Below are positions 9,102 to 46,296 of a DNA stretch of 64,000 nucleotides, piece by piece. The stretch's first letter is position 1. Every line of letters begins with the position of its first letter. The position numbers were made by a program, and so were the translations under genes. The notes under the pieces are model-generated. The model saw only the letters and a program-made list of their open reading frames with translations. It was not told the DNA's origin and did not search any database. This stretch comes from Candidatus Abzuiibacterium crystallinum. Its GTDB lineage: Bacteria > Omnitrophota > Omnitrophia > Omnitrophales > Abzuiibacteriaceae. The stretch covers positions 65,286-129,285 of the forward strand of contig PCVY01000065.1 in assembly GCA_002787155.1 (NCBI GenBank), given 5' to 3'.

Positions 9102-9106
9102 AACAT

Positions 9107-9135
9107 GGGGTCAGACCCGGGAGGGTCTGACCCCT
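9107..9135. repeat. Family A palindromic element (GGGGTCAGACCC / GGGTCTGACCCC hairpin), copy 1
   Basis: GGGGTCAGACCCgggaGGGTCTGACCCC: a 12-bp stem with a 4-nt loop, directly after the nuoN stop. Confidence 0.8.
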
Positions 9136-23645: not shown

Positions 23646-23878
23646 TCAAACCAACTTTCTATAGTTAAAAGAAATCAATAATGTCTCGTTAAGGTGATAA
23701 CGGCTTAATTTAAAAAATCTTCACCCAAACCTTCTTACTAAAAGCTACCCGATAAAAAATCGGCTGTCTAGAACCGTTAGACAGATATCATATTATATTA
23801 CCGGGCAAGTCTTCCGGTGGCACCTGAAAAATAGTCATTTTTTACCCATAAGGCCGCTAATTTCATTGTCTAACGGCA

Positions 23879-24424
23879 CTAGGGCAAGTGAATAAACCGC
23901 AATCCGTAGAGCGTCATCAGATAAATAGCCGCTGTCATGAGCAGAATTGGCAGGCCTCTCCACAATCGAGGAACGTCCGATAATCTTATCCGCTCACTCA
24001 GCGCTATCACCGCCATGGAAAAGAAAATGCTGACAAAGGAAATCAACAGAATTTTGATGTGCTGTATTTCCCAGGAATCCCATTCGGATACTTGCAGCCA
24101 TGTCATTGTTAGAAATAAAACGGAAAATGTAGACAGGGATGGAAACGACTGCTTTTGTTTTTCAATGGATTTCCCTTCCATTTGAAATAACGTCATCAAT
24201 CCCTCCCCGACCGCACAGCTTAAAAAAGCAACAACGACCGCGGTCCACCAATCAAGCCCGATATCGAGAAAGAAACGGCGTATGATTTCTGTGACAATCA
24301 AAGCGATATAAATCATGACCCACAAACCGCCAATTGTGCGCATCAAAGTTCTCATTGATAAACCATAGAAAACTCTTTGAATCAGCGCAAGTACCAACAG
24401 GATTGCAAACCAATGCATGCTCAT
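23879..24424 (-). CDS. Small polytopic membrane protein, possibly a very divergent RnfA/RnfE (NqrDE-family)-like subunit
   Basis: 181-aa ORF with about 5 TM helices. The C-terminal ALSERIRLSDVPRLWRGLPILLMTAAIYL resembles the RnfA/RnfE C-terminus ([30 protein letters not shown]). The canonical LGLCP and TTNC motifs are absent. Confidence 0.35.
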   Translation of the reverse strand: MSMHWFAILLVLALIQRVFYGLSMRTLMRTIGGLWVMIYIALIVTEIIRRFFLDIGLDWWTAVVVAFLSCAVGEGLMTLFQMEGKSIEKQKQSFPSLSTFSVLFLTMTWLQVSEWDSWEIQHIKILLISFVSIFFSMAVIALSERIRLSDVPRLWRGLPILLMTAAIYLMTLYGLRFIHLP

Positions 24425-24894
24425 CGGTGCCGCCTCGCTAAATGCAGGATGCTTTGCACCCCCAGAAATGCCACAGCCATCACAAAAAAATAAGCCGGAT
24501 AAAATAAAGAAAATGCCAAACGCGTCTGGGTTTGGAGCGCTGCTGCCAAGAAAACAAACACCAAAAACAGAAGCCCCGCTTCCAAGCGCTCCACGGCTTT
24601 ACTTGACGTTTGAAGCAAGATAACAATTGAAATGATGCAAAAACTTAATTGAATGTCTGCCAACGGGAGAAAAATTCGGCGCAGTGTTTCAAGTAAGGTA
24701 AGACCTACGATGAGCGCTGCCAGTAAATGAAAGCCCGGCGCCAAAAACCGTTTTAAAAACGTTAAAAATAAATGCGTCAACAATAAAACCAAAAAGACAC
24801 TCAAACTTGCCCAAATTTTGTCATAGGCACTGCCATAAAGAATGACAAATGCAAGCGCGCTTAAAGCAATTCGTTCTAACTGATTTGATTTCAT
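24421..24894 (-). CDS. Small polytopic membrane protein, unknown, in the Rnf-like cluster
   Basis: 157-aa ORF with 4-5 TM helices and a 4-nt overlap with the downstream membrane protein gene. No recognisable motifs. Confidence 0.4.
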   Translation of the reverse strand: MKSNQLERIALSALAFVILYGSAYDKIWASLSVFLVLLLTHLFLTFLKRFLAPGFHLLAALIVGLTLLETLRRIFLPLADIQLSFCIISIVILLQTSSKAVERLEAGLLFLVFVFLAAALQTQTRLAFSLFYPAYFFVMAVAFLGVQSILHLARRHR

Positions 24895-24904
24895 CTTGAT
24901 CCGC

Positions 24905-25009
24905 TCACATGGTTATAAAATCAAGCCACCAATAACTCAATAAAAACAATAAAACTAACACCAAAATACTTTGTCTCATTCGTCTGGTTCTGATGGCAGT
25001 CTTTGTCAT
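24905..25009 (-). CDS. Unannotated 34-aa single-TM peptide (MTKTAIRTRRMRQSILVLVLLFLLSYWWLDFITM)
   Basis: ATG preceded by AGGAGA at -8. It starts 12 nt after the rnfD stop. Basic N-terminus followed by one hydrophobic helix. It falls below the 60-aa cut-off of the ORF track. Confidence 0.45.
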   Translation of the reverse strand: MTKTAIRTRRMRQSILVLVLLFLLSYWWLDFITM

Positions 25010-25020
25010 TTATTTTTCTC

Positions 25021-25917
25021 CTACGATCTCACAAACCGCGCGTACCGGTCCAGGAGAGGCGTTAAACCATTGATGATCAGCACCGAATAAGCCAGCGCTT
25101 CTATTCCGGTCAACCAGCTTTTGAAAAATAAGAAAAATAATGCGCATGCAATCCCCGCCCATATTCTGCCGCGTGATGTAATGGGACTCGTGCTTGAGTC
25201 CGGCAAAATGAAAAAAGCAAACAGAGCAATCGGGTGGCTCAGAAACAAACGGTCGATACGTATGCCGATGAGAAGCGCAAGTATCAGTAACGCGGCAAGG
25301 AAAGTGGCGGGTGTCCGTGGATCAATGCGCCGATGCCAAGCAAGCACCATACCGCCGATTAAAACCGCGATGGGACTCATGTTACCAAGCGTCGGTGCAT
25401 CGACTTGGAAAAACCACGCATAAAACGGAATGACTGCCTGCTGGGTACCATACTCATAAGCTCTGAGGTAAGGTGTGATTTCACCGGCAAAACAAGTCGC
25501 TAAAAAAATAAGACCGGCCAATGACGGATGAAAAATATACTGTCCCCAGCCGCCAAAACAAGCTTTCCCCGCCGCGATAACAAAGAAGACACCGAGCATC
25601 ACTGCCCACCAAGGCGTGTAGCGCGGTATCACCAGAATAAACAAAAGACACAACAAGAAACTGCTGCCGTCATCGATGGTAATTTCTTCCCGGTGAAAAA
25701 AAGCAAATAAATAGTCGCACATCAAGCCGCTTAAAACCGCAAAAATCAAAAGCCGTAGCGTATCCTGAAAATCAATGATGACGTTTAATAAAATGAGAGG
25801 CAATAAACCCAACGTAATTTGCCATGCCCAATAGGATGAAGAAAAACGGGAATGCCAATGCGGTGAAGTGGTCTTAGGAAACGTTTTTTTTAAGCGCTCC
25901 TTAGGGGACAACGGCAT
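25021..25917 (-). CDS. rnfD: RnfD/NqrB-family membrane subunit (short form)
   Basis: DGSSFLLCLLFILVIPRYTPWWAVMLGVFFVIAAGKACFGGWGQYIFHPSLAGL aligns to the E. coli RnfD block DNSALLTGLL...PWWMVVLG...GGLGQNPFNPAMIG. ILPDSSTSPITSRGRIWAG aligns to ILTDPVTASTTNRGRLIFG. It is about 55 aa shorter than typical RnfD. Confidence 0.75.
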   Translation of the reverse strand: MPLSPKERLKKTFPKTTSPHWHSRFSSSYWAWQITLGLLPLILLNVIIDFQDTLRLLIFAVLSGLMCDYLFAFFHREEITIDDGSSFLLCLLFILVIPRYTPWWAVMLGVFFVIAAGKACFGGWGQYIFHPSLAGLIFLATCFAGEITPYLRAYEYGTQQAVIPFYAWFFQVDAPTLGNMSPIAVLIGGMVLAWHRRIDPRTPATFLAALLILALLIGIRIDRLFLSHPIALFAFFILPDSSTSPITSRGRIWAGIACALFFLFFKSWLTGIEALAYSVLIINGLTPLLDRYARFVRS

Positions 25918-27235
25918 AAATTAAATCCTTTTCCGAATGCATGGATTCATATGGCGCGCCAAAATATGTTTGCTTGCCTTCTTTTAAAATATCTAATAAC
26001 GGGATGTTAGACGGGCACACAAAAGCGCAGTTGCCGCATTCGATACAATTTTGAAGTTGAAATGCCCGGACGACGGCACGGTCTTTTAGTCGAATACCCT
26101 TAATTAAAGTCTCCGGTACAAGATGTTCTGGGCAAGTTTCAACACATAATCCGCACCGGATGCAGGGCTTTTCCTTACCTTCATCAATAAATTCCTGCGC
26201 CAGTGCCACAATGCCGTTTACAGGTTTGGTGAGCGGTGTATTGAGATGAGAAAGAGAAACGCCCGTCATCGGACCGCCAAAAATCACGCGGACGGGATCT
26301 CGCAAAAACCCTTTGCAAGTTTTAATGGCATCATAAGCGCTGGTACCGATTCGAAACATCAAATTTTGAGGTTCCACAATGCAGTGGCCGGTGATTGTCA
26401 CCACGCGTTCAATCAGCGGTTTATGATACTTCACGGCCTCGTAGACCGCATAAGCGGTTGCCACATTATGAATTAACACTTTTACGTCATCGCGGTTCTT
26501 GGAAGGAATGCACGTTCGTTTTAACTCTGAATCACTGCCTTGCGGATAGCGAGCCGGCACTTGCTTGACCTCAATATCTTTGAAACCCAGCAGCCTGATT
26601 TTGCTAAGGATGATTTCGATACATTCTAATTTGTTATCTTCAATAGCGATTAAACATTTCTTGGCACCCGAAACGCACATGAGGAATCTTGCCCCATGCA
26701 AAATTTCAACGGCTTTATTGAACATCAGAATAAAGTCAGCCGTTAGAAACGGCTCTGATTCACAGCCATTCAAGATTAATAAATCACACGCCCCTTTGGT
26801 AGTTTGGTCTAACTTCAAGTGAGTCGGAAAACCCTTTCCGCCTAAGCCGACCAAACCAGCATTAAAAATACACTGCCGGATCTTATCACGTTCTGTATTT
26901 TTCCAATCCGGCTGCTCGACAATTTCTGCCTCCCACTCATCTTTTCCGTCACTTTCAAGGCGAATATAATCCGGCGTCACTTCCCGAACCGTACCGGAAA
27001 CACTGGCATGAATATGAGCCGAGAAATCGCCTTGTGCAGCTGCAATTTTAGCACCAGTTTTGACGGCTTCGCCGGAACGGACTAAAGGAATAGCCGGCAA
27101 ACCCTGGTGCTGTTTGAGCGGAAGTGTGACAAAAGCCGGGAGCGGCGCTTTCTTAAAATGGGGTGTTAAAAGACTGAGGGCTTTGTAATCCGGAAGTTTG
27201 ATGCCTCGGCGAAAAATCTTCATGCCAAAAATCAC
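25901..27235 (-). CDS. rnfC: RnfC-family electron transport complex subunit C
   Basis: PLKQH, GLVGLGGKGFPTHLKL, LILNGCESEPFLTAD, LIAIEDNK and VPARYPQGSDSEL motifs. Two 4Fe-4S motifs (CIRCGLCVETCP and CIECGNCAFVCPSNIPL). These match RnfC block by block. Confidence 0.85.
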   Translation of the reverse strand: MIFGMKIFRRGIKLPDYKALSLLTPHFKKAPLPAFVTLPLKQHQGLPAIPLVRSGEAVKTGAKIAAAQGDFSAHIHASVSGTVREVTPDYIRLESDGKDEWEAEIVEQPDWKNTERDKIRQCIFNAGLVGLGGKGFPTHLKLDQTTKGACDLLILNGCESEPFLTADFILMFNKAVEILHGARFLMCVSGAKKCLIAIEDNKLECIEIILSKIRLLGFKDIEVKQVPARYPQGSDSELKRTCIPSKNRDDVKVLIHNVATAYAVYEAVKYHKPLIERVVTITGHCIVEPQNLMFRIGTSAYDAIKTCKGFLRDPVRVIFGGPMTGVSLSHLNTPLTKPVNGIVALAQEFIDEGKEKPCIRCGLCVETCPEHLVPETLIKGIRLKDRAVVRAFQLQNCIECGNCAFVCPSNIPLLDILKEGKQTYFGAPYESMHSEKDLIYAVVP

Positions 27236-27260: not shown

Positions 27261-28463
27261 TTAAGCAAACAATAACTCTCTCATTCTGGTGCGGATGTGA
27301 GCAGAGCTTGCTTTCCCTTGTTCTGTTGAACGGCCGATCCAGCCGCCGCCTAAGACGATATCACCGTCGTAAAGAACGCATGCTTGACCGGGTGTAATGG
27401 CGTCTTGCGGTTCACGAAAGTTCACCTGCACATGATCATTCGAAAGAAATGAAAGCGTGGCTTCAGCTTTTTGATGCCGCGAACGAATTTTAGCTTGAAC
27501 GTGGTTAGGATTAATTTGTTCCAACGGGACAAACCAATTGATTCTTTCAACTTCACACCGTTGACTATAAACATCCTCTTTGGGACCGACAATGACCAGA
27601 TTTTCTTCGGGCAGGATATCAATCACATAAAGTGCGTGCGGATGCGCAATGTTAAGTCCTTTGCGTTGACCAATCGTAAAATGATAATAGCCTGGGTGCG
27701 TTCCTAACACGCTGCCTTCTTTGTCTCTGACTTGACCGACGTCCTCAGAAGCAGCGGCAGAAACCGCGCCCTGTTTTTCAAGAAAAGCACCGTAATCATT
27801 GCTGGGGATAAAACAAATTTCCTGCGAGTCGGGTTTATTGGCAACGCACAAGCCGATCCGGCCGGCAATTTCGCGAATCGTTTGTTTGGTATATTGACCA
27901 ACCGGCAGTTCGAGATGACTTAAGACATCTTGTGATAGCGGGAATAAAACATATGATTGGTCTTTGGCCGCATCTAACCCCTGGGAAACGACAAAATGTT
28001 GTTTGTGTTTGTCATATTTCAATTGCGCGTAATGCCCTGTTGCAATTTTGTCGTATCCAAGTTCGCGGGCTCTTTGTAAAAACAATTTAAATTTGATGTG
28101 CTCGTTACAAGCAATGCAAGGATTAGGCGTGTTTCCCTTCATATATTCATCGGTAAAGTAATCGACCACGTGGGTTTTGAATTCTTTCTCAAAATTAAAT
28201 ACGTGATAAGGAATCTCGAGGCGTTCTGCTACATCGCGCGCATCTTCAACACCAATTACCCCGCAGCACGATTTGGTATTTTTTTCTTCACAGTCGCCGC
28301 TTGCCCACGTGCGAATGGTAGCGCCGCCCACTTCCCAGCCTGCTTGCTGCAGTAAGTAAGCTGCGACTGACGAATCAACGCCTCCGCTCATGGCAACCAA
28401 TATTTTCTTTTTCATAATAACAATCCTGAATCCTGGGGTCAGGTTAGGGTCTGACCCCATCAA
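27261..28463 (-). CDS. mnmA: tRNA-specific 2-thiouridylase MnmA
   Basis: PP-loop ILVAMSGGVDSSVAAYLL. The likely true start is the internal MKKKIL (near 28415). The track ORF extends into the family A repeat, translating it as GSDPNLTP. Confidence 0.85.
   Translation of the reverse strand: MMGSDPNLTPGFRIVIMKKKILVAMSGGVDSSVAAYLLQQAGWEVGGATIRTWASGDCEEKNTKSCCGVIGVEDARDVAERLEIPYHVFNFEKEFKTHVVDYFTDEYMKGNTPNPCIACNEHIKFKLFLQRARELGYDKIATGHYAQLKYDKHKQHFVVSQGLDAAKDQSYVLFPLSQDVLSHLELPVGQYTKQTIREIAGRIGLCVANKPDSQEICFIPSNDYGAFLEKQGAVSAAASEDVGQVRDKEGSVLGTHPGYYHFTIGQRKGLNIAHPHALYVIDILPEENLVIVGPKEDVYSQRCEVERINWFVPLEQINPNHVQAKIRSRHQKAEATLSFLSNDHVQVNFREPQDAITPGQACVLYDGDIVLGGGWIGRSTEQGKASSAHIRTRMRELLFA
28435..28458. 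repeat. Family A palindromic element, copy 3
   Basis: cctGGGGTCAGgttaGGGTCTGACCCC, between bioD and mnmA. Confidence 0.8.
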
Positions 28464-30766: not shown

Positions 30767-31945
30767 TTGATTTGCCGTGCGCTTCCTTTTATATATAGAC
30801 GCATGAAAACAATCAAATCGTTTCCCCAAGCGGCGTTTCAGAAGAAGCTGCTCAAATGGTATCAAACCTCAAAGCGCCCACTGCCATGGCGGCAGAAGAA
30901 AAGTGCTTATGGAACCCTGGTCTCAGAAATCATGCTCCAGCAAACGCAAATCAAAACCGTGATTCCTTATTACGGGCGCTGGCTTAAAACTTTTCCGACC
31001 ATTCAAAAACTGGCAAAAGCACCGCTTAGGAAAGTGCTTAAATTATGGGAAGGCCTGGGTTATTACTCGCGCGCTCGCAATCTTCACCGAACGGCTCAAA
31101 CAATTGACCGCCGATTCCAAGGACAAATTCCATCCGATCCGGAAATCCTGATGATGCTCCCCGGCATCGGACGCTACACAGCCGGCGCCATCGCAAGCAT
31201 TGCCTATGATCAACCGGTGCCTTTGGTAGATGGGAATGTCGCACGCGTATTTTCACGCATTTTTTTAATCAAACAAGATATTTTGAAACCGGAAACGCAG
31301 AAACTGCTTTACACGTATGCTTCCTCACTGGTTTCTTCAAAACAAGCAGGCAATTTCAATCAAGCTTTGATGGAATTAGGTGCTTTAATCTGTACACCTG
31401 CATTACCGGAGTGCTCGCTCTGCCCGGTTCGTTCCCTCTGCTGCGCTTATCAAAACGGCGTGCAAGAAACACTTCCTGTTCGATCAAAAGGTCCTCAAAA
31501 AAAGAAGGTGTTTTTGCAAGCAGCACTTCTGACACACCAAAACAAAATATTAGTTCAGGAACGTCCGGCAAAAGGTATTTGGGGTGGTTTGTGGGAGTTG
31601 CCTAACAGGCGCGTGAATGGCGAGCATGAACCCAGAAAATTTAAACGTTATTTAGAAAAACAATATCGTGTTTCTTTGGCGCCGACTTTTAAACGTTTAT
31701 CTTTAATGAAACGTGAACTCACGCATTTGTCCGTTGTGATTGAACCTTTTCAATTTCTGGTTAAAAAAACTGCTTTAAAACAAAGCGAAAAGCTGCGTTG
31801 GATATTGAAGCCTCATTTAAAATCCATTTCTTGTCCGGTCCCTTATCAGCAAATCCTTCAAAATCATTTTGAATCTAAAGTCTTGGGGTCAGACCCTGAC
31901 CTGACCCCAAGCAAAGGGTCTGACCCCGCGCAACCAAATGGATAA
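30767..31945 (+). CDS. mutY: A/G-specific adenine DNA glycosylase MutY
   Basis: HhH-GPD fold, 4Fe-4S loop CTPALPECSLCPVRSLC and a NUDIX-like C-domain. The last ~20 codons run through two family A repeats (…GSDPDLTPSKGSDPAQPNG). Confidence 0.85.
   Translation: MICRALPFIYRRMKTIKSFPQAAFQKKLLKWYQTSKRPLPWRQKKSAYGTLVSEIMLQQTQIKTVIPYYGRWLKTFPTIQKLAKAPLRKVLKLWEGLGYYSRARNLHRTAQTIDRRFQGQIPSDPEILMMLPGIGRYTAGAIASIAYDQPVPLVDGNVARVFSRIFLIKQDILKPETQKLLYTYASSLVSSKQAGNFNQALMELGALICTPALPECSLCPVRSLCCAYQNGVQETLPVRSKGPQKKKVFLQAALLTHQNKILVQERPAKGIWGGLWELPNRRVNGEHEPRKFKRYLEKQYRVSLAPTFKRLSLMKRELTHLSVVIEPFQFLVKKTALKQSEKLRWILKPHLKSISCPVPYQQILQNHFESKVLGSDPDLTPSKGSDPAQPNG
31883..31928. repeat. Family A palindromic elements, copy 4 (a full hairpin plus a half-site)
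   Basis: CTTGGGGTCAGaccctgaCTGACCCCAAG hairpin, then GGGTCTGACCCCgcgc. Located inside the 3' end of mutY and overlapping the ygfZ-like start. Confidence 0.8.
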
Positions 31946-32946: not shown

Positions 32947-35900
32947 TTAAGCCATTTCGGCAATCCGGCTCCATGATCGGATCTCCCGATCGAGAATATC
33001 AGCCAAACCGGCAATGCCTGATCTTAAATTTTTGATGGTGTTGTCTGAAAGTGTAATAATGCGATCGTAAAACTCGGACAACCGGGAATTGGCAAGTGTT
33101 GTTCTGGTCAATAGAGTGAGTCGCTTAGCACCACTCGCACGTAACTTGACGGCCAAAGCTTGAGGTGTTTTGGCAAAAACGATTTTTCGGTCTTCCGGAA
33201 GCATCGCATTGGCATTTTGAATCAATTCTAATTCGGAACCGGTCGTATAAACCACGCCTATCAATGTGCCGCTGTGTGCTGCTTCGGTTGCTAAAGCAAA
33301 AAGCCCGTCCCCAAAAGCAACGCTCCAGTCAAAAACAGTTGCTTGTGATTGGTCAAGCGTGGCACTGATGCCAAGTCGATCATAAAAATAAGATTTGGCA
33401 CTTGGATTTTGGTCAAACAAAGCATGAGCTTGTTCTACCGCGCGGGCAAATTGTGTTCTATCATTGGCGGATTCCGGCAATGCGATTCTTAACTCAGCTC
33501 GTTCATCAACATTCGATGCCGCGCGTGCTAGCTGGTGTGTAACGGTTGCAATGAGCCGGTCACCTTCATTTGGCGCATTTGTAATGGCTTTTGACACTGC
33601 TTGCACGAAACGCGCGGGCACTCTTCTCTCAATAAGGGCGGCCGCCCATTCGCCGATCGCAAACGCCCAAGCACGCCAATCATCGGCAGGAATGGTTGTC
33701 AAAGCATCAACCAATGTGCGCTTTCCGGCATCTTTCATGATTTCAGATTGAATGATTTGGAAAGTAATTTTGTCACCCACTGAAGCTGCTGCCGCTAATT
33801 GCAGCACCCACGCCCAAAGGCGGTTGGTAATATCGCCAGGCGTTTGGTTGGGAAGTTCTTTGGTGCGGATAATTCCAAACTCTTTCCATTCATTGTAATC
33901 GATAGAACCATCTTCGCTCATGGCATATAAAATAAGCAAATAACCAAACGCCCATATTTCAAATTCAGTTTTCGGCATATCCGCTCTCGCCATCACGTCT
34001 TCTATTTGATAAAGCCAAGGACCAAATAAGTTTTCTCGTAAAGGCGCCCGGCCTCTGGCTTGGAATTCGGCCAAAGCCATTCTGCCGATTAACCATCGCC
34101 GCCAACTTTGGAACGATTCTTCAGTCAGTCTTTCAATATCCTGTTTCATAAAATCTTTGATTTGAGAATAAATTCGGTTGCCATTCCCGGCAGCAACCAA
34201 TAAAGCAACGCTTGCGCTGTAAGCACGCAGTTTAATTTCCTCTTGCGTGTTACCCGGCATCGCTTTCATTGCTTCAAAAAACCGCCACACTTGCTTAGAC
34301 ACTTCTTTCTTATCGGTGTAATCGATCTCGCGCAGATTGATTACAAATTTTCCGCGCAGCTCAGAATGACCGGATCTTTTATTTCGTTTCATACGAAGCT
34401 TATATTGGAGATCGGTTTGAATACCGATGGATACATACAATCTGTTTAATTCTTCTTTTGCCTTTTTAATTCTTACTTCGTCTTGATCAACTTCGGCTTG
34501 TACACGTTCTTCCATTAACGCCAACCACATTTTAACGACAATTGGAATGCCTGCTAAATAGCGTTCTCCAGTATGGACGTCATGTTCTAAATCAAGAATG
34601 ATTTCTTCATCCGCATCATCAGTGATGCTATTAATAAAGGCGCCCATCCGGGCATCTTCGATTTGCCTATCAAGACTCAGGTTGGTACGAAGAATTAAAA
34701 CTTGAACAATATTAAATTCATCCAAAATAGATTCGGCTAAATTTTCCTTGCTTGCCATTGTTCTTAAAGTTGCTAGTTTGGGCAAGATGCGATTTCTGGA
34801 TGTTTCGATAAGCTGCATCAAAGAAATTTGAGATTGAATGCGTAATTCTGCATGGCCGGAAGAACTTTCTTTTGATTCCGCGAGTTTGATACTGATACCA
34901 ACAATGCGGCCGGCGCCTGCAAAATCTCCCAAAAGAAGGACGGTTGGTTCTTTGCTGCCATTTTCTTTGACAACCAAACTGGTTAGTTCTTCATCCTGAA
35001 AGGATACGAATGTGCCATAAATGACACGATTCGTCGTTTGTCCATGCGCACGATAAAGCAATCGGATTGAATCGCCCGGTTTGAGCGAGTTCGCCAATAA
35101 AAATTCGGCATTAAGCGTTTGTTCGATATTCAGTCGAATTTTCTGATTTGACCGTATTTCAAAACGACGCACCTCGCCATCTTGACTGACAAAAGTGATT
35201 AGCACTTCTAAACCGGTTACTTTGTTCCGGTAATGCATCGCAGAACCGGGATTAAAATATGTTTGGCGGCCAGGGTCGACCAATGTTTCATTTTTGCCGT
35301 GATTGATATAAATTACTTCTAAATTGCGGGGTCGTACGCCTCGGTAGGGTTTGGGGAACTGAAAAACATTTTTATTGGCTCTGTTCTGAACAACGCCTAT
35401 GGGTAACAAAAAGTCTTGGTTAAAATTAATGGTCATCCATCGGTACGGCAAGGCAATGGTGGTTGAAAATTTTAATTCTGTTTGTTCTTTTTCATCTGAT
35501 TTTGTTTCAATTTCATCTTCAGCAGGTTTTTGACGCAATTCTGAATGAGTCGAAGCTGAGACGATTTTAGCAAGCACAATACCTAAGGCCCGAATTTCAC
35601 CGGTACCCTCAAAATCCTCCAAGGGGAATACGGTTGGAACGAGCTTATCATTTTCTTGAACCACTAAGTGATTGACCGTATCACCGATTTCGTAACTCAC
35701 AAAATGACCTTTAACGGGCCGGCCTTTGTTTTCTCCGTGCAAACGATAGAAGAAGTGAATTTCATCTCCCGATTTTAATGAATCAGCAAGCATGAAATCA
35801 ATATGCCGTGCTCTTTTAAATGTCAGGCGAATTTTTTTGTTAGATTTTATTTCAAAACGCCGGCCGGTATCGTTTTTTGAAACATATTCGATTGAAACAA

Positions 35901-37128
35901 CTAATCCTGTTGTTTTGTTTTCAATTCGTGCAGACTTGCCAACATTCACATAAACTTGCTCACCTAAAGCAGCGGGAATTTCTTTTCCCTCTACATTAAC
36001 ATAGATTAATTGAAGATCGGACCCAGGTCGGCGGTTTTTGGGATAGTTAAACAGCGTGACGGCTGTTTTCTTTGACTGGACAATGCCAAACGGTAATGTA
36101 AACTCGTCGCCGAAATTCACGCCTACCCATTCATGCGGAATGGTAATAAAAGCCGAAAAAGGTAACTGTATTTGGTCTGCAATGATTTCTTTATCCTTTT
36201 CTATGAAACGTAATTCTTGACGACTTAAGAGTTTTTGTTCGGCTGATTTTGCAGCTTTATTCACATCCTGATCAAAGAGGCCAAAGACACTTATTGTTTT
36301 TATCCAATCCCGCAACTCTGAACGTTCAAAAGTAACTTCAAAATCACCCATCATGAGCCGCCCGTCTGTAGCGGCAAAGCGCAAGCGATTACCGTTAATA
36401 TGTTTGAGAAGAATCGAAACACCCGCTTTCGAATCAACGGGTTGCTGGCGGCCTTTTAAATCAGCCAATTTTGAATCTCTTGAAGTAGTTATAAACGCTT
36501 CTGCCGCGGAAATTAACCAAGCCAATGCTGCTTGATTATCATCACGATCAACATCCAATAAAGTATAAAGCTGCGGATGTGGATTAAAACTTCCGGGAAT
36601 AAGCGCAAGTTTAAAAGGATACCTTTTCCTGGGCGGTAGATTTTGAGGCGGCGCTGTTTCTAGCGGAAGAAGTTCTTTTAAGATATCAAGAACAGTTCTC
36701 GGAATTCTTCCTTCAGAATTAATGATACCGGCTTTTTTCCAAGCTTTCCCTGCTGTTTGTACCTCTGAATCTTGAGGGGTAAGTTTATTGTGTACAAGAC
36801 CTCTTAGAATGCTGCGCTCTTCTTGTGTCAGCCCCACGAGCATCTGGTTGACTTGATTTTTTAAAGTCTCGCCTTCTCTTAATTCTGCTCTTAATTCAGG
36901 TGCCGTTTGTAAACGTGAAAGCGCTTCCATTGACCCTGTTTGTTGCAACCACCCATTGTTAATGAGCGTTTGCTGTCTGGCATGCGAAAATTCTTCACGA
37001 ATGGTTTGTGTAACGGTAGTAGGAACGTCGGAATATGCGATTGTCTCCGTCCAGCTAAAAGCCGCTACGAGCACAATGGCAATGGTTTTAAGAAGAATTG
37101 GGTTTGACTTCGTTTTTAGAAAGGACAT
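32947..37128 (-). CDS. Giant secreted protein (1393 aa) with two tandem ~210-aa internal repeats, function unknown
   Basis: Sec-type signal peptide. Repeats at about aa 322-532 and aa 553-763 (nt ~35533-36165 and ~34840-35472) share LP(F/I)G(I/V)VQ…(I/V)Y(V/I)N…KTTGL/KVTGL…RRFEI(K/R)SN(K/Q)KIRL…SLK(S/P)GD…HG…V(K/I)YGTFVS… at about 35-40% identity. The long C-terminal half is predicted to be helical. Confidence 0.7.
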   Translation of the reverse strand: MSFLKTKSNPILLKTIAIVLVAAFSWTETIAYSDVPTTVTQTIREEFSHARQQTLINNGWLQQTGSMEALSRLQTAPELRAELREGETLKNQVNQMLVGLTQEERSILRGLVHNKLTPQDSEVQTAGKAWKKAGIINSEGRIPRTVLDILKELLPLETAPPQNLPPRKRYPFKLALIPGSFNPHPQLYTLLDVDRDDNQAALAWLISAAEAFITTSRDSKLADLKGRQQPVDSKAGVSILLKHINGNRLRFAATDGRLMMGDFEVTFERSELRDWIKTISVFGLFDQDVNKAAKSAEQKLLSRQELRFIEKDKEIIADQIQLPFSAFITIPHEWVGVNFGDEFTLPFGIVQSKKTAVTLFNYPKNRRPGSDLQLIYVNVEGKEIPAALGEQVYVNVGKSARIENKTTGLVVSIEYVSKNDTGRRFEIKSNKKIRLTFKRARHIDFMLADSLKSGDEIHFFYRLHGENKGRPVKGHFVSYEIGDTVNHLVVQENDKLVPTVFPLEDFEGTGEIRALGIVLAKIVSASTHSELRQKPAEDEIETKSDEKEQTELKFSTTIALPYRWMTINFNQDFLLPIGVVQNRANKNVFQFPKPYRGVRPRNLEVIYINHGKNETLVDPGRQTYFNPGSAMHYRNKVTGLEVLITFVSQDGEVRRFEIRSNQKIRLNIEQTLNAEFLLANSLKPGDSIRLLYRAHGQTTNRVIYGTFVSFQDEELTSLVVKENGSKEPTVLLLGDFAGAGRIVGISIKLAESKESSSGHAELRIQSQISLMQLIETSRNRILPKLATLRTMASKENLAESILDEFNIVQVLILRTNLSLDRQIEDARMGAFINSITDDADEEIILDLEHDVHTGERYLAGIPIVVKMWLALMEERVQAEVDQDEVRIKKAKEELNRLYVSIGIQTDLQYKLRMKRNKRSGHSELRGKFVINLREIDYTDKKEVSKQVWRFFEAMKAMPGNTQEEIKLRAYSASVALLVAAGNGNRIYSQIKDFMKQDIERLTEESFQSWRRWLIGRMALAEFQARGRAPLRENLFGPWLYQIEDVMARADMPKTEFEIWAFGYLLILYAMSEDGSIDYNEWKEFGIIRTKELPNQTPGDITNRLWAWVLQLAAAASVGDKITFQIIQSEIMKDAGKRTLVDALTTIPADDWRAWAFAIGEWAAALIERRVPARFVQAVSKAITNAPNEGDRLIATVTHQLARAASNVDERAELRIALPESANDRTQFARAVEQAHALFDQNPSAKSYFYDRLGISATLDQSQATVFDWSVAFGDGLFALATEAAHSGTLIGVVYTTGSELELIQNANAMLPEDRKIVFAKTPQALAVKLRASGAKRLTLLTRTTLANSRLSEFYDRIITLSDNTIKNLRSGIAGLADILDREIRSWSRIAEMA

Positions 37129-38918: not shown

Positions 38919-39569
38919 TTATTTTTTTTGTCTCAGTTTCGTGATTTGGTCATCTTCGCCTACGACAATCATAACATCATCCGGTTGAAACTGATACTTA
39001 GGTTCCGGCACAACTTTCAAGTTGCCCTTAAGCGGGTTTTTGACGGCCAAAACATGAAATCCATAACGGTTTCTGAGATCCAATGCCTCGATGGATTTCC
39101 CGATAAATTCCTGCGGCACCGCTACTTCTACTACGCTTTTATCCTCGCTCAACCGCACAACATCAAGCACATCGGGAGAAACGAGGCTTGAAACCAGCCG
39201 GATGGCTTCATCCCGTTCGGGAAAAACCACTTGATGCGCCCCGATAATTTTTAAAATTTTACCGTGGTCATCGCTAATGGCTTTCGCAATGATCCGCTTA
39301 GTACCGAGATCTTTCAAATGATGTGTTACCAAAACACTGGCATCAACAATATCACCCAAAGAAACCACCACTACGTCCATATCCCGCGCAAACTTCTCCA
39401 ACAAATCACGGTCCTTGGCATTCCCGATAACTACTTGCCCAACGTTGTCTTTCAGATCATCCAGCTTTTCCTGATCGATGTCGATTAAGACCACTTCGCA
39501 TTCTTTTGCCGCCATCTCCACAGCAACCGTCGCTCCGAAATTACCCGCACCAATCACCAATGCTTTCAT
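38919..39569 (-). CDS. trkA: Potassium uptake protein TrkA/KtrA (NAD-binding RCK domain)
   Basis: Rossmann motif VIGAGNFG plus a C-terminal RCK_C domain. It is adjacent to trkH. Confidence 0.8.
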   Translation of the reverse strand: MKALVIGAGNFGATVAVEMAAKECEVVLIDIDQEKLDDLKDNVGQVVIGNAKDRDLLEKFARDMDVVVVSLGDIVDASVLVTHHLKDLGTKRIIAKAISDDHGKILKIIGAHQVVFPERDEAIRLVSSLVSPDVLDVVRLSEDKSVVEVAVPQEFIGKSIEALDLRNRYGFHVLAVKNPLKGNLKVVPEPKYQFQPDDVMIVVGEDDQITKLRQKK

Positions 39570-39594
39570 ATTGCTTCTCCTCTCATCATTGATC

Positions 39595-40950
39595 TTATCC
39601 GATTACCACTTCTTCTTCCGCATATTCATAACTGGGTCCCCGTTTACGAGCCCAAAAAGCCAGCCCTAAGGTAAGCGGCCCGATACGTCCGACAAACATC
39701 AAAAAAATCGTCAATAACTTGCCCGGCGCAGACAGAACAGGCGTCACGCCGGTTGACAAACCGACGGTACCAAAAGCTGAGGTTGCCTCAAAAAAAAGAT
39801 CCAGAAAACCTCCTTTCGAAGCGGTATGAGAAATGCCGATGTGCTCTGTCACCTGATAAAGAAGGGTAGCGATACTAATTAAAACCAAAGCACTTGCAAA
39901 AACAGCTACCGCCCGCCCTACATTTTCTCTTGCAACATTGCGCCGAAAAATGGAAGCGGTGACTTTGCCCCGCATGTGGTTACGCACAAGTGCCGCTAAC
40001 ACCGCAAAGGTCGATACCTTGATACCGCCCGCGGTAGAACTGGGACAGCCTCCGATAAACATATAAAACACGATAAAGAAAAGGGTAGCGTTGGTCAAAG
40101 AAGCCGTGTGGATCGTGTTCAGACCTGCCGTGCGTGAAGTAACGGAAAGGAAAAAAGCGTTTATAATCTGTTCGTGCATCTTTAAGCCCAATAATAAATT
40201 TTGTCTTTCAAACAACCAAACTACCAAAGCACCCAATACAATTAAAACCGCACTGGTTACAAGGCAAATCCGTGTGTGTAAGCTGAGGCGCATGCGTTCT
40301 CCGTGCATGCGTTTGAACATCCACACCCGAAGCTCGTCAACTAGCATAAAACCAAGACCGCCCAGCACAATTAAGATCATAATGACCGACGGCAGATAAA
40401 TTTCTTTTTGAAAATGCATTAAACTATCTTCATACAAACTAAATCCTGCGTTACAAAAGGCGGATACCGCATGAAAAATAGACGAATAAAGTGCATAGGG
40501 CGCCGCATGGATCTCTTGAAGCCGAATATAAAGCAATGCTGCGCCCAATGTTTCAAAAGAGATCGTCATAAGAAAAACTGCTACTAAGACTGCTAATAAA
40601 TTACGTTTGTCGCCACGGTGAGGCTGGAATCCGACAGCATAGCGCGACGTCAATGTGACGCTGCGCCTTGCGACCAGCATGAAGAAAACGGAAAATGTCA
40701 TGATACCGAGTCCGCCGGCTTGCATCAAAGCAAGAATAATCAGCTGGCCGAATCGCGTCAGTTCCGTTCCAATATTAACAACACTCAAGCCGGTCACGCA
40801 AACCGCCGAGGTCGCCATAAAAAAAGCGTCTAGCCAACTAAGCGGCGCCTCGGCACTTGCATTTGGAAACATCAAAAGCAACGTGCCAAAGGCAATCACA
40901 CCTAAAAAGCTGAATGCAATCGTTTTGGCTGGGTTTAAGGTTGCTGTCAT
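39595..40950 (-). CDS. trkH: Potassium transporter TrkH/KtrB family
   Basis: 451-aa polytopic protein with repeated M1PM2 selectivity-filter-like GxG segments (TGLS, AGGL, GGCPSSTAGG, VGLSTG). Confidence 0.8.
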   Translation of the reverse strand: MTATLNPAKTIAFSFLGVIAFGTLLLMFPNASAEAPLSWLDAFFMATSAVCVTGLSVVNIGTELTRFGQLIILALMQAGGLGIMTFSVFFMLVARRSVTLTSRYAVGFQPHRGDKRNLLAVLVAVFLMTISFETLGAALLYIRLQEIHAAPYALYSSIFHAVSAFCNAGFSLYEDSLMHFQKEIYLPSVIMILIVLGGLGFMLVDELRVWMFKRMHGERMRLSLHTRICLVTSAVLIVLGALVVWLFERQNLLLGLKMHEQIINAFFLSVTSRTAGLNTIHTASLTNATLFFIVFYMFIGGCPSSTAGGIKVSTFAVLAALVRNHMRGKVTASIFRRNVARENVGRAVAVFASALVLISIATLLYQVTEHIGISHTASKGGFLDLFFEATSAFGTVGLSTGVTPVLSAPGKLLTIFLMFVGRIGPLTLGLAFWARKRGPSYEYAEEEVVIG

Positions 40951-41054
40951 AAAAAGACCATGGAATAAAGATGAGGGACGGTTTTTTTCAGGAACCGTCC
41001 CTATTTTTCTTTTACACCATTAAGTGATGACTTATGTTCTGGTGCACTTGTCAT

Positions 41055-43160
41055 TTAAAACAAATGATTCTGAGCAACAAATGATGCCAAGACAATGGCA
41101 ACCATCGACATCAATTTAATCAAGATGTTGAGAGAAGGCCCGGCTGTGTCTTTAAAAGGATCTCCTACCGTGTCACCCACGACCGCAGCTTTATGCGCGG
41201 AGGATCCTTTGCCGCCAAAATTACCTGCTTCAATATGCTTTTTCGCATTATCCCATGCGCCGCCGGCACTGGCCATCATGATGGCCAGTACAAATCCGCA
41301 CACGATACTCCCTAAAAGTAATCCGATGGTTGCTTCCACACCAAACAACCATCCAATAACAGCAGGCGCCAACAACGCTAGAATAGAAGGCAGCACCATT
41401 TCTTTTTGAGCTGCTTTGGTCACAATATCAACGCAGCGTCCGTTATCGGCCTCGGCTTTACCTTCAAGCAATCCTTTGATTTCTTTGAATTGGCGCCTGA
41501 CTTCTACGACCACCTGCTGAGCCGCGCGCCCCACCGCATCCATGGTTAAAGCACAAAAAACAAAGGGCAGCATGGCGCCGATAAAAAGCCCTACGATAAA
41601 ATTTGGATTTGTAATCGATAAACTCACCTGAAAACCCATTTTGATCACGAGATCTCGATAAGCAACCACTAATGCCAAAGCAGTCAAAGCAGCAGAACCG
41701 ATGGCAAAACCTTTTCCGGTAGCGGCTGTCGTATTGCCCAAACTATCAAGCGCGTCTGTTCGTTCCCTGACCTTCGGATCTAAATTCGCCATTTGTGCAT
41801 TGCCGCCGGCATTATCGGCAATCGGCCCATAAGCATCGGACGCTAATGTAATACCGAGTGTCGAAAGCATCCCCACTGCTGCGATCGCAATGCCGTAAAG
41901 ACCTTTTTCAAATTCCAGCTTGCCTCCTGAAAAATAGAAAGCAGCTAAAATACCAACAGCCACAAAAATAACAACCGGTGCTGTTGAAAGAAATCCGACG
42001 CCCAAACCGCGAATAATAACGGTAGCCGGTCCGGTTTGTGCACTTTCGGAAATAGAACGCGTCGGCCCATAAGTGTCCGAGGTAAAATACTCAGTGGCGA
42101 AACTAATGAGAAGCCCGACTACAAGACCCGTCACAATAGCCCAGAAGATTCCAATATTTTCCGCACCCATGACGTGGCGAACCATAAAAAATGAAAATAA
42201 AACGATAAACCCGCTGCTCGCAATAACACCGCTTCTGAGCGCTTTCAACAACTCGCCTTGATTGACGGTTTCTTTTGTTCTCACAAAGAAAAATCCGATG
42301 ATGGAAGCTAAAATGCCGCAAGCGGCAATACCGATCGGAAGCAGCATGCCGCTCAAACCAAAACCAGCGCTAACAGAAAGTGCTACCGCTGCAATAATAG
42401 AACCGATGTAGGATTCAAATAAGTCAGCGCCCATACCAGCCACATCACCAACGCAATCTCCGACGTTATCGGCAATGACCGCAGGGTTTCGGGGATCGTC
42501 TTCCGGAATGCCGGCTTCTACTTTCCCTACCAGATCGGCGCCAACATCCGCCGCTTTGGTAAAAATACCGCCGCCCACACGCGCAAAAAGTGCTTGAGAG
42601 CTAGCGCCGATTCCAAACGGCAGGATGGTTTGCGAAAGAAGAAGCAGGCGATCAGCTTCGGTTAATTCGCCGCTGCCCATGAAATAATGATTTAATGCGA
42701 AATACCAACCCGTCACATAAATGACCCCGAGGCCTACAACGGTAAAACCCATCACGGCACCGCCTGAGAAAGCGACGCGGAGGGCTTGATTTAAGCTGGT
42801 AATCGCCGCATGCGCTGTCCGGCTGCTGGAACTGGTTGCGATAGTCATTCCAATATATCCGGCTAAAGCCGAAAATAAACCGCCGATTAAAAACGCAAAT
42901 GGGACAAAAATAAGGAAGTATCCTTGTGAAGACAAATAAAGCAGGATAATAAAAACAACCGTGAAAAAAACAGACACCCCGATATATTGGCGGCGTAAAT
43001 ACGCGCGTGCACCCACTTTTACCGCATTGGCAATATGGCGCATTCGCTCATTGCCATCCGGACTCCAAAAAATGCGCATCATGAGATAAACTGAAAAACC
43101 CAGCGCCAAAAACCCGCTCAATAAGCCGCTCACGGCGAGCCAATCGGTTGTTATTTGCAT
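41055..43160 (-). CDS. hppA: Membrane-bound proton/sodium-translocating pyrophosphatase
   Basis: Diagnostic H+-PPase motifs GGG(I)[16 protein letters not shown] and DNVGDCVGD(V)[11 protein letters not shown]. 701 aa. Confidence 0.9.
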
Positions 43161-45180: not shown

Positions 45181-46296
45181 CTAATTACCGAGAATCTTTT
45201 TGGAACTTTCTCCTCCGCCGAACTGAATCCCTTTCATGCTGAGCGATAACTCATGAGGTCTGTCACTGGCACGGTACATTTCAATTTCCGAAATTAATCC
45301 TTCATTTTTTAACCCAACCAAACTTTGATTGAGGGATTGCATACCGTCAGCTGCACCGCTTTGCATCACTTGTGTGAGTTTATCTAAACGCTGTTGACGA
45401 ACCATGTCGGCTACCATTTGTGTCATCGTCAAGATTTCAAAAGCAGGCACGTAACCATGCCCCCTGGCAATCGGAACAAGACGCTGGGTAGCAATCAGGT
45501 TTAAATTGTAAGAAATATCTACCAAGACCCGTGAACGTTCATCGGGCGGGAAGAAACTCAACAAGCGTTCAAACACATGCATGATACTTCTGGCATGGAC
45601 CGTTGAAATCACCAAACGGCCGATTTCGGCAGCTGCCATGGCGCTGATAAAGGTTTCCGCATCCCGAATTTCGCCGATAAAAATGACGTCCGGTGCCTGA
45701 CGCGTCGCAAAACGAAGCGCGCTCGCAAAGCCCGGCGTATCTTGGCCGACTTCGCGCTGATTGATCAAACTCCGTTTATTCACGTGCAAAAACTCAACCG
45801 GGTCTTCAATGGTGATAATATGCTTTTCAACATTTTGGTTGATTTGATTGATCATGGCATTCGCGGTTGTGCTTTTACCAGATGAGGCGGCGCCAGCAAT
45901 TAAAATTAAGCCGCGTTCTGCCAAAGCCCATTTTTTCAAAATGGGCGGGATGCGCAATGCTTCAAACGAGGGGATTTCCCGCCAAGCTACCCGAATCACA
46001 CAACTTAGTTGCCCTTGTTGATAAAAAAGATTGGCGCGCAAGCGCCCATGGCCTTCGATGGCAAATGACAAATCAACGCTTTTATCATGTTCTAATTGAT
46101 TCTTGTGATGCGCCTGCATTAAAAATTCTGCGATGCGGGTCATTTCTTCGTGCGTGGTTGTGTTGAGACCTTCAAACAAACGCAATTGGTTGGCCGAACG
46201 GAAGCAGGGCTTGGCATCTGTTTTAAGATACAAATCCGTCCCCTTATGGGTTTCCATATAATCCAAGCATTTCTTCAAATAATCATGCGCATTCAT
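45181..46296 (-). CDS. PilT/PilU-family hexameric ATPase (second paralog, atypical P-loop)
   Basis: Walker A GAASSGKST, Asp box ITIEDPVEF, Walker B VIFIGEIRD and His box LVISTVHA. It lacks the PilT-specific AIRNLIRE motif. Confidence 0.7.
   Translation of the reverse strand: MNAHDYLKKCLDYMETHKGTDLYLKTDAKPCFRSANQLRLFEGLNTTTHEEMTRIAEFLMQAHHKNQLEHDKSVDLSFAIEGHGRLRANLFYQQGQLSCVIRVAWREIPSFEALRIPPILKKWALAERGLILIAGAASSGKSTTANAMINQINQNVEKHIITIEDPVEFLHVNKRSLINQREVGQDTPGFASALRFATRQAPDVIFIGEIRDAETFISAMAAAEIGRLVISTVHARSIMHVFERLLSFFPPDERSRVLVDISYNLNLIATQRLVPIARGHGYVPAFEILTMTQMVADMVRQQRLDKLTQVMQSGAADGMQSLNQSLVGLKNEGLISEIEMYRASDRPHELSLSMKGIQFGGGESSKKILGN

Follow-up and report, generated by a model that had tools for sequence, protein, structure and literature searches.

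A five-gene cluster in a stretch of 64,000 nucleotides (nt) of Candidatus Abzuiibacterium crystallinum (contig PCVY01000065.1; the whole stretch is called the window below) appears, as judged from its sequence, to encode a conserved, remodelled derivative of the Rnf complex that cannot pump by the canonical mechanism. Genes coding for RnfC, an RnfD derivative (RnfD'), a micro-protein of 34 amino acids (aa), and derivatives of RnfE (RnfE') and RnfA (RnfA') follow the canonical order C-D-G-E-A-B minus B, with a small open reading frame (micro-ORF) in the rnfG slot. All five ORFs were confirmed on the minus strand, within positions 23879–27235, where an earlier reading of the letters without database searches (the sequence-only reading) had placed them.

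In Rnf complexes, RnfB contains six or more [4Fe-4S] clusters, RnfA and RnfE share one intramembrane [2Fe-2S] cluster ligated by cysteines of both subunits, RnfG carries a covalent flavin mononucleotide (FMN), RnfD a covalent FMN plus riboflavin, and RnfC two [4Fe-4S] clusters plus FMN (PMC12174285, PMC9588780). The membrane cofactors have been called strictly conserved across RNF and NQR (review PMC12174285). RnfC, RnfD, RnfE and RnfA of the complexes of Acetobacterium woodii (9ERI) and Clostridium tetanomorphum (7ZC6) are homologous to the window proteins and encoded in the same order; the module shares with these complexes the NADH (reduced nicotinamide adenine dinucleotide)/FMN and 2x[4Fe-4S] motifs of RnfC, the RnfA fold of RnfA', and a single-pass helix where the RnfG anchor would be. 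In contrast to them, it lacks RnfB, the FMN domain of RnfG, the FMN-threonine loop of RnfD and the [2Fe-2S] cysteines of RnfA/E, and ferredoxin coupling and the known pumping mechanisms would therefore be unavailable to it. A relay from ferredoxin via RnfB, the [2Fe-2S] cluster and the FMN of RnfG to the FMN of RnfD is predicted to be impossible, so that the module should not be a ferredoxin:NAD+ pump of known type. Lacking four defining features of Rnf as well as those of Nqr, it should not be classified as a functional Rnf or Nqr complex, while clearly being an Rnf derivative. We regard the identity of the subunits and the loss of the canonical mechanism as highly probable. The features of the locus are:

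25901..27235, minus strand, rnfC, 444-aa ORF from GTG 27235, identified by family profiles
25021..25917, minus strand, gene of the RnfD derivative (RnfD'), 298 aa, 17-nt overlap with rnfC, PF03116
25018..25022, minus strand, putative AGGAG Shine-Dalgarno sequence of the micro-ORF, read from the sequence, 8 nt before its ATG and overlapping the rnfD stop codon
24905..25009, minus strand, micro-ORF, 34 aa, Lys/Arg-rich N-terminus followed by one transmembrane helix
24421..24894, minus strand, gene of the RnfE derivative (RnfE'), 157 aa, about six helices, identified by family hidden Markov model (HMM) and PDB profile search
23879..24424, minus strand, gene of the RnfA derivative (RnfA'), 181 aa, six helices, identified by profile, PDB profile search and fold; its start overlaps the RnfE' stop (ATGA)
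23764..23784, minus strand, terminator-like hairpin with T-run, from a consensus scan only, about 95 nt past the rnfA' stop

RnfC

The sequence-only reading had called both RnfC and RnfD unambiguous, and for RnfC this holds: the protein scored 379 bits against TIGR01945 (cut-off 246) and matched PF13375 (RnfC_N), PF01512 (Complex1_51K) and Fer4 families. Its NADH/FMN motif, GLVGLGGKGFPT, is of the canonical GxVGxGGxGFPT type, and with two CxxCxxCxxxCP motifs it has both the NADH/FMN domain and the two [4Fe-4S] motifs of a member of this family. All eight iron-sulfur (Fe-S) cysteines are invariant among 18 clade members, and RnfC retains all its cofactor motifs. The nqrA models gave 26–66 bits against cut-offs of 321–450. 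NCBI and other gene callers start RnfC at ATG 27223 (440 aa, MKIFRRG...), not at GTG 27235 (444 aa).

PrdC, a proline reductase-associated protein, resembles the window protein in being an RnfC-like NADH/FMN/Fe-S protein outside a full Rnf complex. Identity with PrdC was rejected, as the window protein reached 173 bits against TIGR04481 (cut-off 490) while passing the rnfC model; moreover, the clade RnfC always precedes an rnfD gene, and its neighbours in the window are mnmA and rnfD, not a proline reductase context.

A scan of genome contigs with the RnfC query matched only four operons, all of them canonical and spirochaetal. Seven metagenome loci (L046, L047, L058, L060, L080, L092 and L102) contain an RnfC homologue (37–41% identical) with no recognisable RnfD, RnfG, RnfE, RnfA or RnfB within about 5 kb downstream, and may represent another stand-alone usage of RnfC.

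The RnfD derivative and its flavin sites

RnfD' matched PF03116 with 180 bits, and its best counterparts among solved RnfD chains were 9eri_D (1.6e-30) and 7zc6_D (1.3e-25), which establishes homology to RnfD/NqrB; its score against TIGR01946 (138.8 bits) lies under the NCBIfam rnfD cut-off of 207, so that the earlier assignment stands by the Pfam family but not by the NCBIfam threshold. Scores of 38–51 bits were obtained with nqrB models (cut-offs 350–792), the N-terminus of the 298-aa protein being short. A word-indexed search with RnfD retrieved relatives at 23–29% identity only. The shortfall of about 55 aa noted previously applies to the comparison with proteobacterial RnfD (about 350 aa), but not to that with the solved firmicute RnfDs (310–318 aa).

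Alignment with canonical RnfD/NqrB revealed that the residues absent from RnfD' are those of the periplasmic loop with the (S/T)(G/A)AT(P)L FMN-threonine site, bearing out the earlier remark that no attachment threonine was apparent. Of the nine reference RnfD/NqrB sequences aligned, eight contain this loop, as does RnfD of locus L026 from a WOR-3 genome. None of the clade RnfDs examined has the motif, the loop being deleted in the window protein and most clade members; RnfD of locus L025 retains the loop, but its motif reads SAGLNAL, with Asn in place of Thr. A pairwise alignment set Thr158 of the window protein opposite the FMN-threonine of 7zc6_D; Thr158 was rejected as attachment site, since the residue varies within the clade and does not stand in the proper motif context.

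In RnfD of C. tetanomorphum, Asp248 has been assigned to riboflavin and Na+ binding, with Asn124 as a second polar contact (Vitt et al., PMC9588780). The Asp equivalent to Asp248 is kept in eight of nine reduced-clade RnfDs (Asn in L024), and the Asn124-equivalent position holds Asn, His or Gln across the clade and His in RnfD' of the window.

Another RnfD without the (S/T)GAT motif, with QEPIRV at that position, is encoded in a high-GC, otherwise canonical rnfCDGEA operon (L011:5580-12787), in which RnfB forms a fusion with a Pyr_redox_2/GltD-like oxidoreductase (672 aa) and which is preceded by a multihaem cytochrome c gene.

The small membrane proteins RnfE' and RnfA'

Taken alone, the 181-aa protein gave only a weak, though colinear, RsxA/RnfA signal, and a word-indexed search matched nothing but the protein itself. 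Since an exhaustive HMMER search against 1.84 billion representatives yielded only 16 relatives, the family is small. At the family level, comparison with an RnfA/NqrE profile gave an hhalign probability of 97.4% (E=1.3e-11) and no match to RnfE; the family HMM scored 28–52 bits on ten RnfA/NqrE sequences and recognised nothing else; and the family profile, searched against all PDB sequences, retrieved RnfA of A. woodii (9eri_A, 5.8e-9), NqrE (2.7e-6), and RnfA of C. tetanomorphum and A. vinelandii. An AlphaFold (AF2) model based on 15 sequences (predicted local distance difference test score, pLDDT, 84.9) shows six helices, and a Foldseek search of 350,542 PDB chains with this model returned RnfA chains 9eri_A and 7zc6_A as top matches (template modelling, TM, scores of 0.61–0.66 over 162–169 columns), followed by NqrE and NqrD. 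The C-terminal ERLxLSDVPxxxRGLPILLI motif (general form ER(I/L)xxSDVPxxxRGLPI), to which the sequence-only reading had drawn attention, is real and matches RnfA.

The 157-aa protein alone found no match in Pfam, NCBIfam or PDB, and its single-sequence HMM test was weak, with 41 of 1970 shuffles reaching its score. Its identity follows from family HMM and PDB profile searches. With the family HMM, seven RnfE sequences gave scores from 27.5 down to 10.4 bits and RnfA at most 5 bits, and none of 3000 locally shuffled RnfE sequences used as a control exceeded 16 bits; at E<=1 the only PDB matches of the family profile were RnfE chains, 7zc6_E (9.4e-4) and 9eri_E. Three of six family members match PF02508 (Rnf-Nqr; best E=3.3e-5), whereas hhalign of the family (7 members) against an RnfE alignment of 9 members yielded a probability of only 14%. 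Overall, the searches trace the 157-aa protein to RnfE and the 181-aa protein to RnfA, both proteins being homologues with the PF02508 fold. The view of the 157-aa protein as an orphan is thus overturned by the specific match of its family profile to RnfE, and the homology of the two small proteins to RnfE and RnfA contradicts the possibility, raised earlier, that they belong to an unrelated family.

The four cysteines of the LGxCP and (T/V)(T/V)NC motifs, which bind the intramembrane [2Fe-2S] cluster, are absent from RnfE' and RnfA', as had been deduced before from the lack of LGLCP/TTNC signatures; each of the two window proteins contains one Cys only, which is not conserved. Reference RnfA/E have Cys25 and Cys113 without exception, and Ser, Ala or hydrophobic residues are aligned there in the derivatives. 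Because neither family alignment has a conserved Cys column, the [2Fe-2S] ligands of RnfA/E have been lost. The family-specific motifs WW, GE, PSF and GLPI, on the other hand, are nearly invariant.

A natural single-chain fusion (P0137, 311 aa) has an N-terminal E'-like half, without the helix that comes last in the 157-aa family, and a C-terminal A'-like half, and fits a pairing of E' with A' as in RnfE and RnfA.

The missing subunits and the micro-ORF in the rnfG slot

RnfA, RnfE and RnfG profiles built here detected no further Rnf subunit in the 64-kb window, nor did the window contain a match to PF04205 (FMN_bind) or RnfB, and the rnfG slot holds only the 34-aa helix; the absence of RnfG and RnfB from the cluster, already noted by eye, was thus confirmed with profiles. 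There was no RnfB match in any of the reduced loci of relatives described below, and no NqrF-like gene in the cluster, whose A/C-type subunit keeps the FMN and Fe-S motifs.

The micro-ORF begins 11 nt past the rnfD stop and has no annotation in the NCBI record. Its description in the sequence-only reading as an unannotated, tightly coupled peptide proved correct, given the AGGAG 8 nt upstream and its conservation in relatives. Counterparts of 32–58 aa directly follow rnfD in 17 distinct reduced loci (among them L019-L022, L024, L027, L028, L030, L032, L035-L037, L043, L048, L052 and L096), and share an N-terminus rich in Lys/Arg, a single hydrophobic helix and the motif L-S-[FY]-x-x-L; for most loci from the metagenome scan, the start of the micro-ORF overlaps the rnfD stop codon. 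Gene callers predicted it in L019, L021 and L024. No micro-ORF was found in L023/L039 and L034, all of which lack E', or in L025, which lacks E' and A'. Comparison with the RnfG profile gave no signal (E=0.4–1.2), and a role as an NqrM-like maturation factor was rejected, as the peptide has no Cys.

RnfG and RnfB of C. tetanomorphum each contribute their single helix, and RnfA and RnfE one helix each, to a four-helix bundle seen in the structure (PMC9588780). Position and topology suggest that the micro-protein is a remnant, or an in-situ replacement, of the membrane-anchor helix of RnfG. In the most economical reading, the anchor helix would have been kept or replaced for a structural role once the flavin domain had been shed, and a mostly unannotated membrane protein of 32–58 aa would mark the place of the lost subunit.

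Distribution among relatives and selection

RnfC relatives form a graded series from 62% to about 40% identity, many of them labelled Omnitrophica. Genomic context was inspected for eight of them, chosen via RnfC homologues. Five (L019, L020, L021, L024 and L022; RnfC 48–62% identical) show the order bioA-bioD-mnmA-(PP-loop ATPase)-rnfC-rnfD-small ORF-E'-A'-pilT-polA, with rnfD products of 257–311 aa, E' of 156–169 aa and A' of 173–181 aa. L023 (RnfC 43%) has only rnfC, rnfD and a gene for a 170-aa protein (C-D-A'), L025 (43%) only rnfC and rnfD, and L026 (the WOR-3 genome, RnfC 41%) a full rnfCDGEAB-rseC operon adjoining pyruvate:ferredoxin oxidoreductase. In L025 (7396-8610), the expected site of rnfE'/rnfA', a gap of 213 bp ahead of pilT, is taken up by a GC-rich palindromic repeat element.

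Scanning metagenomes with the clade RnfC alignment added 80 loci, which were classified by the profiles built here. All loci with an RnfC identity of at least 42% and enough downstream sequence are of the reduced type. So are L043, L048, L052 and L096 (37–39%), of which L043 and L048 were checked and share the bioA-bioD-mnmA neighbourhood; most other loci at <=41% RnfC identity are canonical C-D-G-E-A-B.

An RnfD protein matching that of the window letter for letter is encoded on PFGO01000092.1 (GCA_002781965.1, CG12_big_fil_rev, Crystal Geyser) and on 16 other contigs. As the whole operon is 100% identical between the window and six contigs that come from different samples, selection was measured on the L021/L024 pair instead, where synonymous sites are saturated (synonymous divergence, pS, 0.65–0.82) and permit only an upper bound on the nonsynonymous to synonymous rate ratio (dN/dS). 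Nonsynonymous divergence (pN) amounted to 0.11 for RnfC, 0.23 for RnfD', 0.22 for RnfE' and 0.21 for RnfA', to 0.17 (pS 0.76) for the micro-ORF with its 42 codons, and to 0.03–0.07 for mnmA and pilT. All five genes of the module thus appear to be under purifying selection, with the membrane subunits less constrained than RnfC. The comparison across relatives, which the sequence-only reading had called for, therefore shows a recurrent and conserved module and speaks against a split operon or a chance cluster. On these alignments and gene orders, the module of Abzuiibacterium crystallinum and its relatives is best described as descending, by vertical inheritance and with degeneration, from a canonical rnfCDGEAB operon.

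That canonical rnfG and rnfB (and rnfA/rnfE) are located elsewhere and assemble with the module into an ordinary Rnf complex is very improbable, even though the scan covered 64 kb of a genome of about 2.5 Mb. The defects are internal to the resident proteins (FMN-threonine of RnfD, Cys ligands of RnfE/RnfA) and therefore cannot be complemented by genes in trans; the reduced set recurs in every examined relative with RnfC >=42% identical; and, as weak evidence, no second RnfC from the species occurs among the 120 best RnfC matches.

The gradation from C-D-micro-E'-A' via C-D-A' to C-D, together with the Thr-to-Asn intermediate in RnfD, may record the stepwise dismantling of a respiratory complex. 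It could also be taken to mean that the cluster is a decaying relic, left behind by a switch from fermentation or acetogenesis to respiration, in which RnfC, perhaps anchored by RnfD, has a residual redox task of the soluble type while the other genes are being lost. The repeat element in place of E'/A' in L025, the two- to threefold faster evolution of the membrane subunits as compared to RnfC (pN 0.21–0.23 vs 0.11), and the reported conservation of Rnf in acetogenic Omnitrophota classes (Gorgyraia, Velamenicoccia), while Omnitrophia respire, would agree with such decay. However, a relic would not survive as five intact ORFs in many species despite the divergence of RnfC to 37–62% identity, pN is far under the saturated pS for every gene including the micro-ORF, and the near-invariance of the WW, GE, PSF and GLPI motifs likewise argues against decay, which we consider unlikely.

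Two distant reduced loci (L048:6499-8826, and L052) encode a 775-aa protein between rnfC and rnfD, in which a membrane helix at the N-terminus is combined with three DsbA/thioredoxin-like domains, all of them containing an FSDFHCPFC motif; it may hint at periplasmic thiol-disulfide chemistry or be a chance insertion. A PP-loop ATPase of 272–279 aa with weak NAD_synthase/QueC matches is encoded between mnmA and rnfC in most relatives (L021:5162-5992, L022:5165-6004, L024:5135-5965, L025:5217-6035), often overlapping the start of rnfC; in L023:3948-5858 it forms a fusion with mnmA, and it is absent from the window, L019 and L020.

Possible function

The only part conserved in all lineages is RnfC plus RnfD, as illustrated by C-D-A' in L023 and C-D in L025, and this pair is predicted to comprise the NADH/FMN site, two [4Fe-4S] clusters and a probable riboflavin site. 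As an overall explanation, we tentatively propose, at somewhat less than even confidence, that the module is a degenerate, cofactor-stripped Rnf derivative working as an RnfC-RnfD NADH:membrane-acceptor oxidoreductase; the transfer of electrons from NADH to a membrane acceptor, taken as a mechanism by itself, is slightly more doubtful. NADH would be oxidised at the FMN of RnfC, and electrons would pass via the two [4Fe-4S] clusters of RnfC to a riboflavin near the conserved Asp of RnfD, reversing the last steps of canonical Rnf, and from there, like those of the NqrB riboflavin, to a membrane acceptor, most plausibly a quinone. RnfE', RnfA' and the micro-protein would serve as structural partners of RnfD, a scaffold dispensable in some lineages.

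The acceptor should have a higher potential than NADH, because NADH without energy coupling cannot usefully reduce ferredoxin and because the docking subunit is gone. In Nqr, the NqrB riboflavin passes electrons directly to ubiquinone (PMC12174285). For Abzuiibacterium crystallinum of the class Omnitrophia, respiratory complexes I-V and a likely aerobic lifestyle have been described from a genome (GCA_002781965.1) estimated to be 100% complete (Seymour et al. 2023, PMC10066038, supplement), and the step that commits to ubiquinone synthesis is common among Omnitrophia. The assembly of the window, GCA_002787155.1, is likewise estimated to be 100% complete. Quinone is favoured as acceptor on account of both this precedent in Nqr and the respiring host lineage with its common committing step.

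Several points weigh against an RnfC-RnfD oxidoreductase. RnfD lacks the N-terminal helices that build the quinone pocket of NqrB (PMC12174285), its acceptor site is hypothetical, and riboflavin binding is suggested by one conserved Asp, the second contact, Asn124, being His in the window. With complex I reportedly present, a second NADH dehydrogenase is not required. A purely C-D enzyme does not explain the selective retention of RnfE', RnfA' and the micro-protein, and in the AF2 model of P0137 only the RnfA' half is confident, the RnfE' half having low confidence. The search for rnfB, rnfG, apbE and partner proteins covered the 64-kb window of a genome of about 2.5 Mb.

The proposed enzyme would resemble Nqr, which is also an Rnf offshoot with its ferredoxin input replaced and with electron transfer from the RnfD/NqrB-type riboflavin to a membrane quinone (PMC12174285). 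However, Nqr keeps all four membrane cofactors and has NqrF as NADH input and a cofactor-less NqrA, whereas in the module the RnfC/NqrA-type subunit keeps its cofactors and would itself be the NADH input, the membrane relay being gone. NqrB moreover has an N-terminal extension that forms the ubiquinone pocket (PMC12174285), and such an extension is missing from RnfD'. It appears rather doubtful whether Rnf was turned into a respiratory NADH dehydrogenase a second time in this module, in an independent event that paralleled the origin of Nqr but differed from it, and with cofactor-free RnfE/RnfA and a 34-aa RnfG remnant as scaffold or ion path. A precedent for a purpose other than ferredoxin-based energy conservation in a respiring bacterium is the Rnf homologue RsxABCDGE of E. 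coli, which reduces SoxR; Rsx differs in having the full set of six subunits and flavinylation motifs in RsxD and RsxG (PMC12174285), which the module lacks.

The sequence-only reading had suggested a minimal or remodelled Rnf/Nqr-type, redox-driven ion pump. The remodelled Rnf module was borne out by the RnfE/RnfA homology, by conservation and by selection, but a redox-driven pump is disfavoured by the missing cofactor sites. Such a pump would have to be driven by RnfC and the RnfD riboflavin alone, moving Na+ or H+ through RnfD and/or RnfE'/RnfA'. The Asp proposed as Na+/riboflavin site is kept in eight of nine clade RnfDs, the modelled RnfA' appears to retain the RnfA fold, and purifying selection on RnfE', RnfA' and the micro-protein, which have no cofactor site, points to a function other than redox, for instance as an ion path. 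Published models, however, need the missing cofactors, either the RnfD FMN with an RnfG shuttle or reduction of the RnfA/E [2Fe-2S] cluster (PMC12174285, PMC9588780). Only centres on the cytoplasmic side remain, hence there would be no transmembrane electron step, and some lineages that keep C-D are without RnfE' and RnfA'. We therefore consider an ion pump improbable.

Slightly less probable still is a redox-sensing transporter or channel, in which RnfD, with its fold resembling that of Amt and urea transporters, would move a solute or cation together with RnfE'/A', gated by RnfC as a sensor of NADH/NAD+. RnfD/NqrB is structurally related to ammonium and urea transporters (PMC12174285), and the membrane proteins are still conserved although all their redox sites have been lost. 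On the other hand, the eight invariant Fe-S cysteines of RnfC argue for electron transfer over mere nucleotide sensing, and the relatives' loci examined contain no conserved transport-related neighbour. Also counting against this explanation, we know of no precedent for a redox-gated RnfC/RnfD transporter.

Genome-based reconstructions of Omnitrophota metabolism cite a conserved Rnf complex. In the present lineage of Omnitrophia, automatic RnfC and RnfD calls would wrongly imply ferredoxin:NAD+ coupling and an ion gradient, and a record of 'Rnf present' for these genomes is probably no sign of a working ferredoxin:NAD+ pump. A limited search of the literature on Omnitrophota Rnf and on cryo-EM (cryogenic electron microscopy) structures of Rnf/RnfD brought up no description of such a variant. 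As a lineage apparently stripped of all four membrane cofactors except possibly riboflavin, with the proteins still under selection, it offers a natural dissection of the roles of RnfD, RnfE and RnfA beyond carrying electrons, and isolates the step from RnfC to riboflavin. If the RnfC-RnfD oxidoreductase exists as proposed, nature would have provided a 'minimal RnfCD' enzyme in which the least-understood step of Rnf and Nqr is isolated.

Gene neighbourhood and other features of the window

The upstream neighbour of rnfC is mnmA, and rnfA' is followed by the terminator-like hairpin and then by pilT. Because only 25–37 nt separate the rnfC start from the mnmA stop, rnfC is probably co-transcribed with bioA-bioD-mnmA, and the hairpin is likely to mark the end of the transcription unit. 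A functional link of the module to pilT or mnmA was rejected: the entire bioA...polA string is syntenic across the clade, and adjacency therefore carries no functional signal.

Ion- and energy-related genes are located at positions 38919-43160 and 45181-46296 of the window, coding for TrkA and TrkH of K+ uptake and a membrane H+/Na+-pyrophosphatase (701 aa; PF03030, 868 bits); a second PilT/T2SSE-type ATPase is encoded among them. A short palindromic intergenic repeat, GGGGTCAGACCC(T)AACCTGACCCC, occurs at at least five sites of the window (9105-9135, 28436-28460, 31884-31928, 32924 and 43186), and reads 'GSDP(D/N)LTP' where ORF calls extend into it, as in the N-terminal extension of mnmA and at the C-terminus of mutY. 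A 1393-aa ORF on the minus strand (32947-37128) without Pfam match at E<=1e-6 is conserved in relatives and adjoins a glycine-cleavage-T-like gene; large unannotated ORFs have been reported as typical of Omnitrophia.

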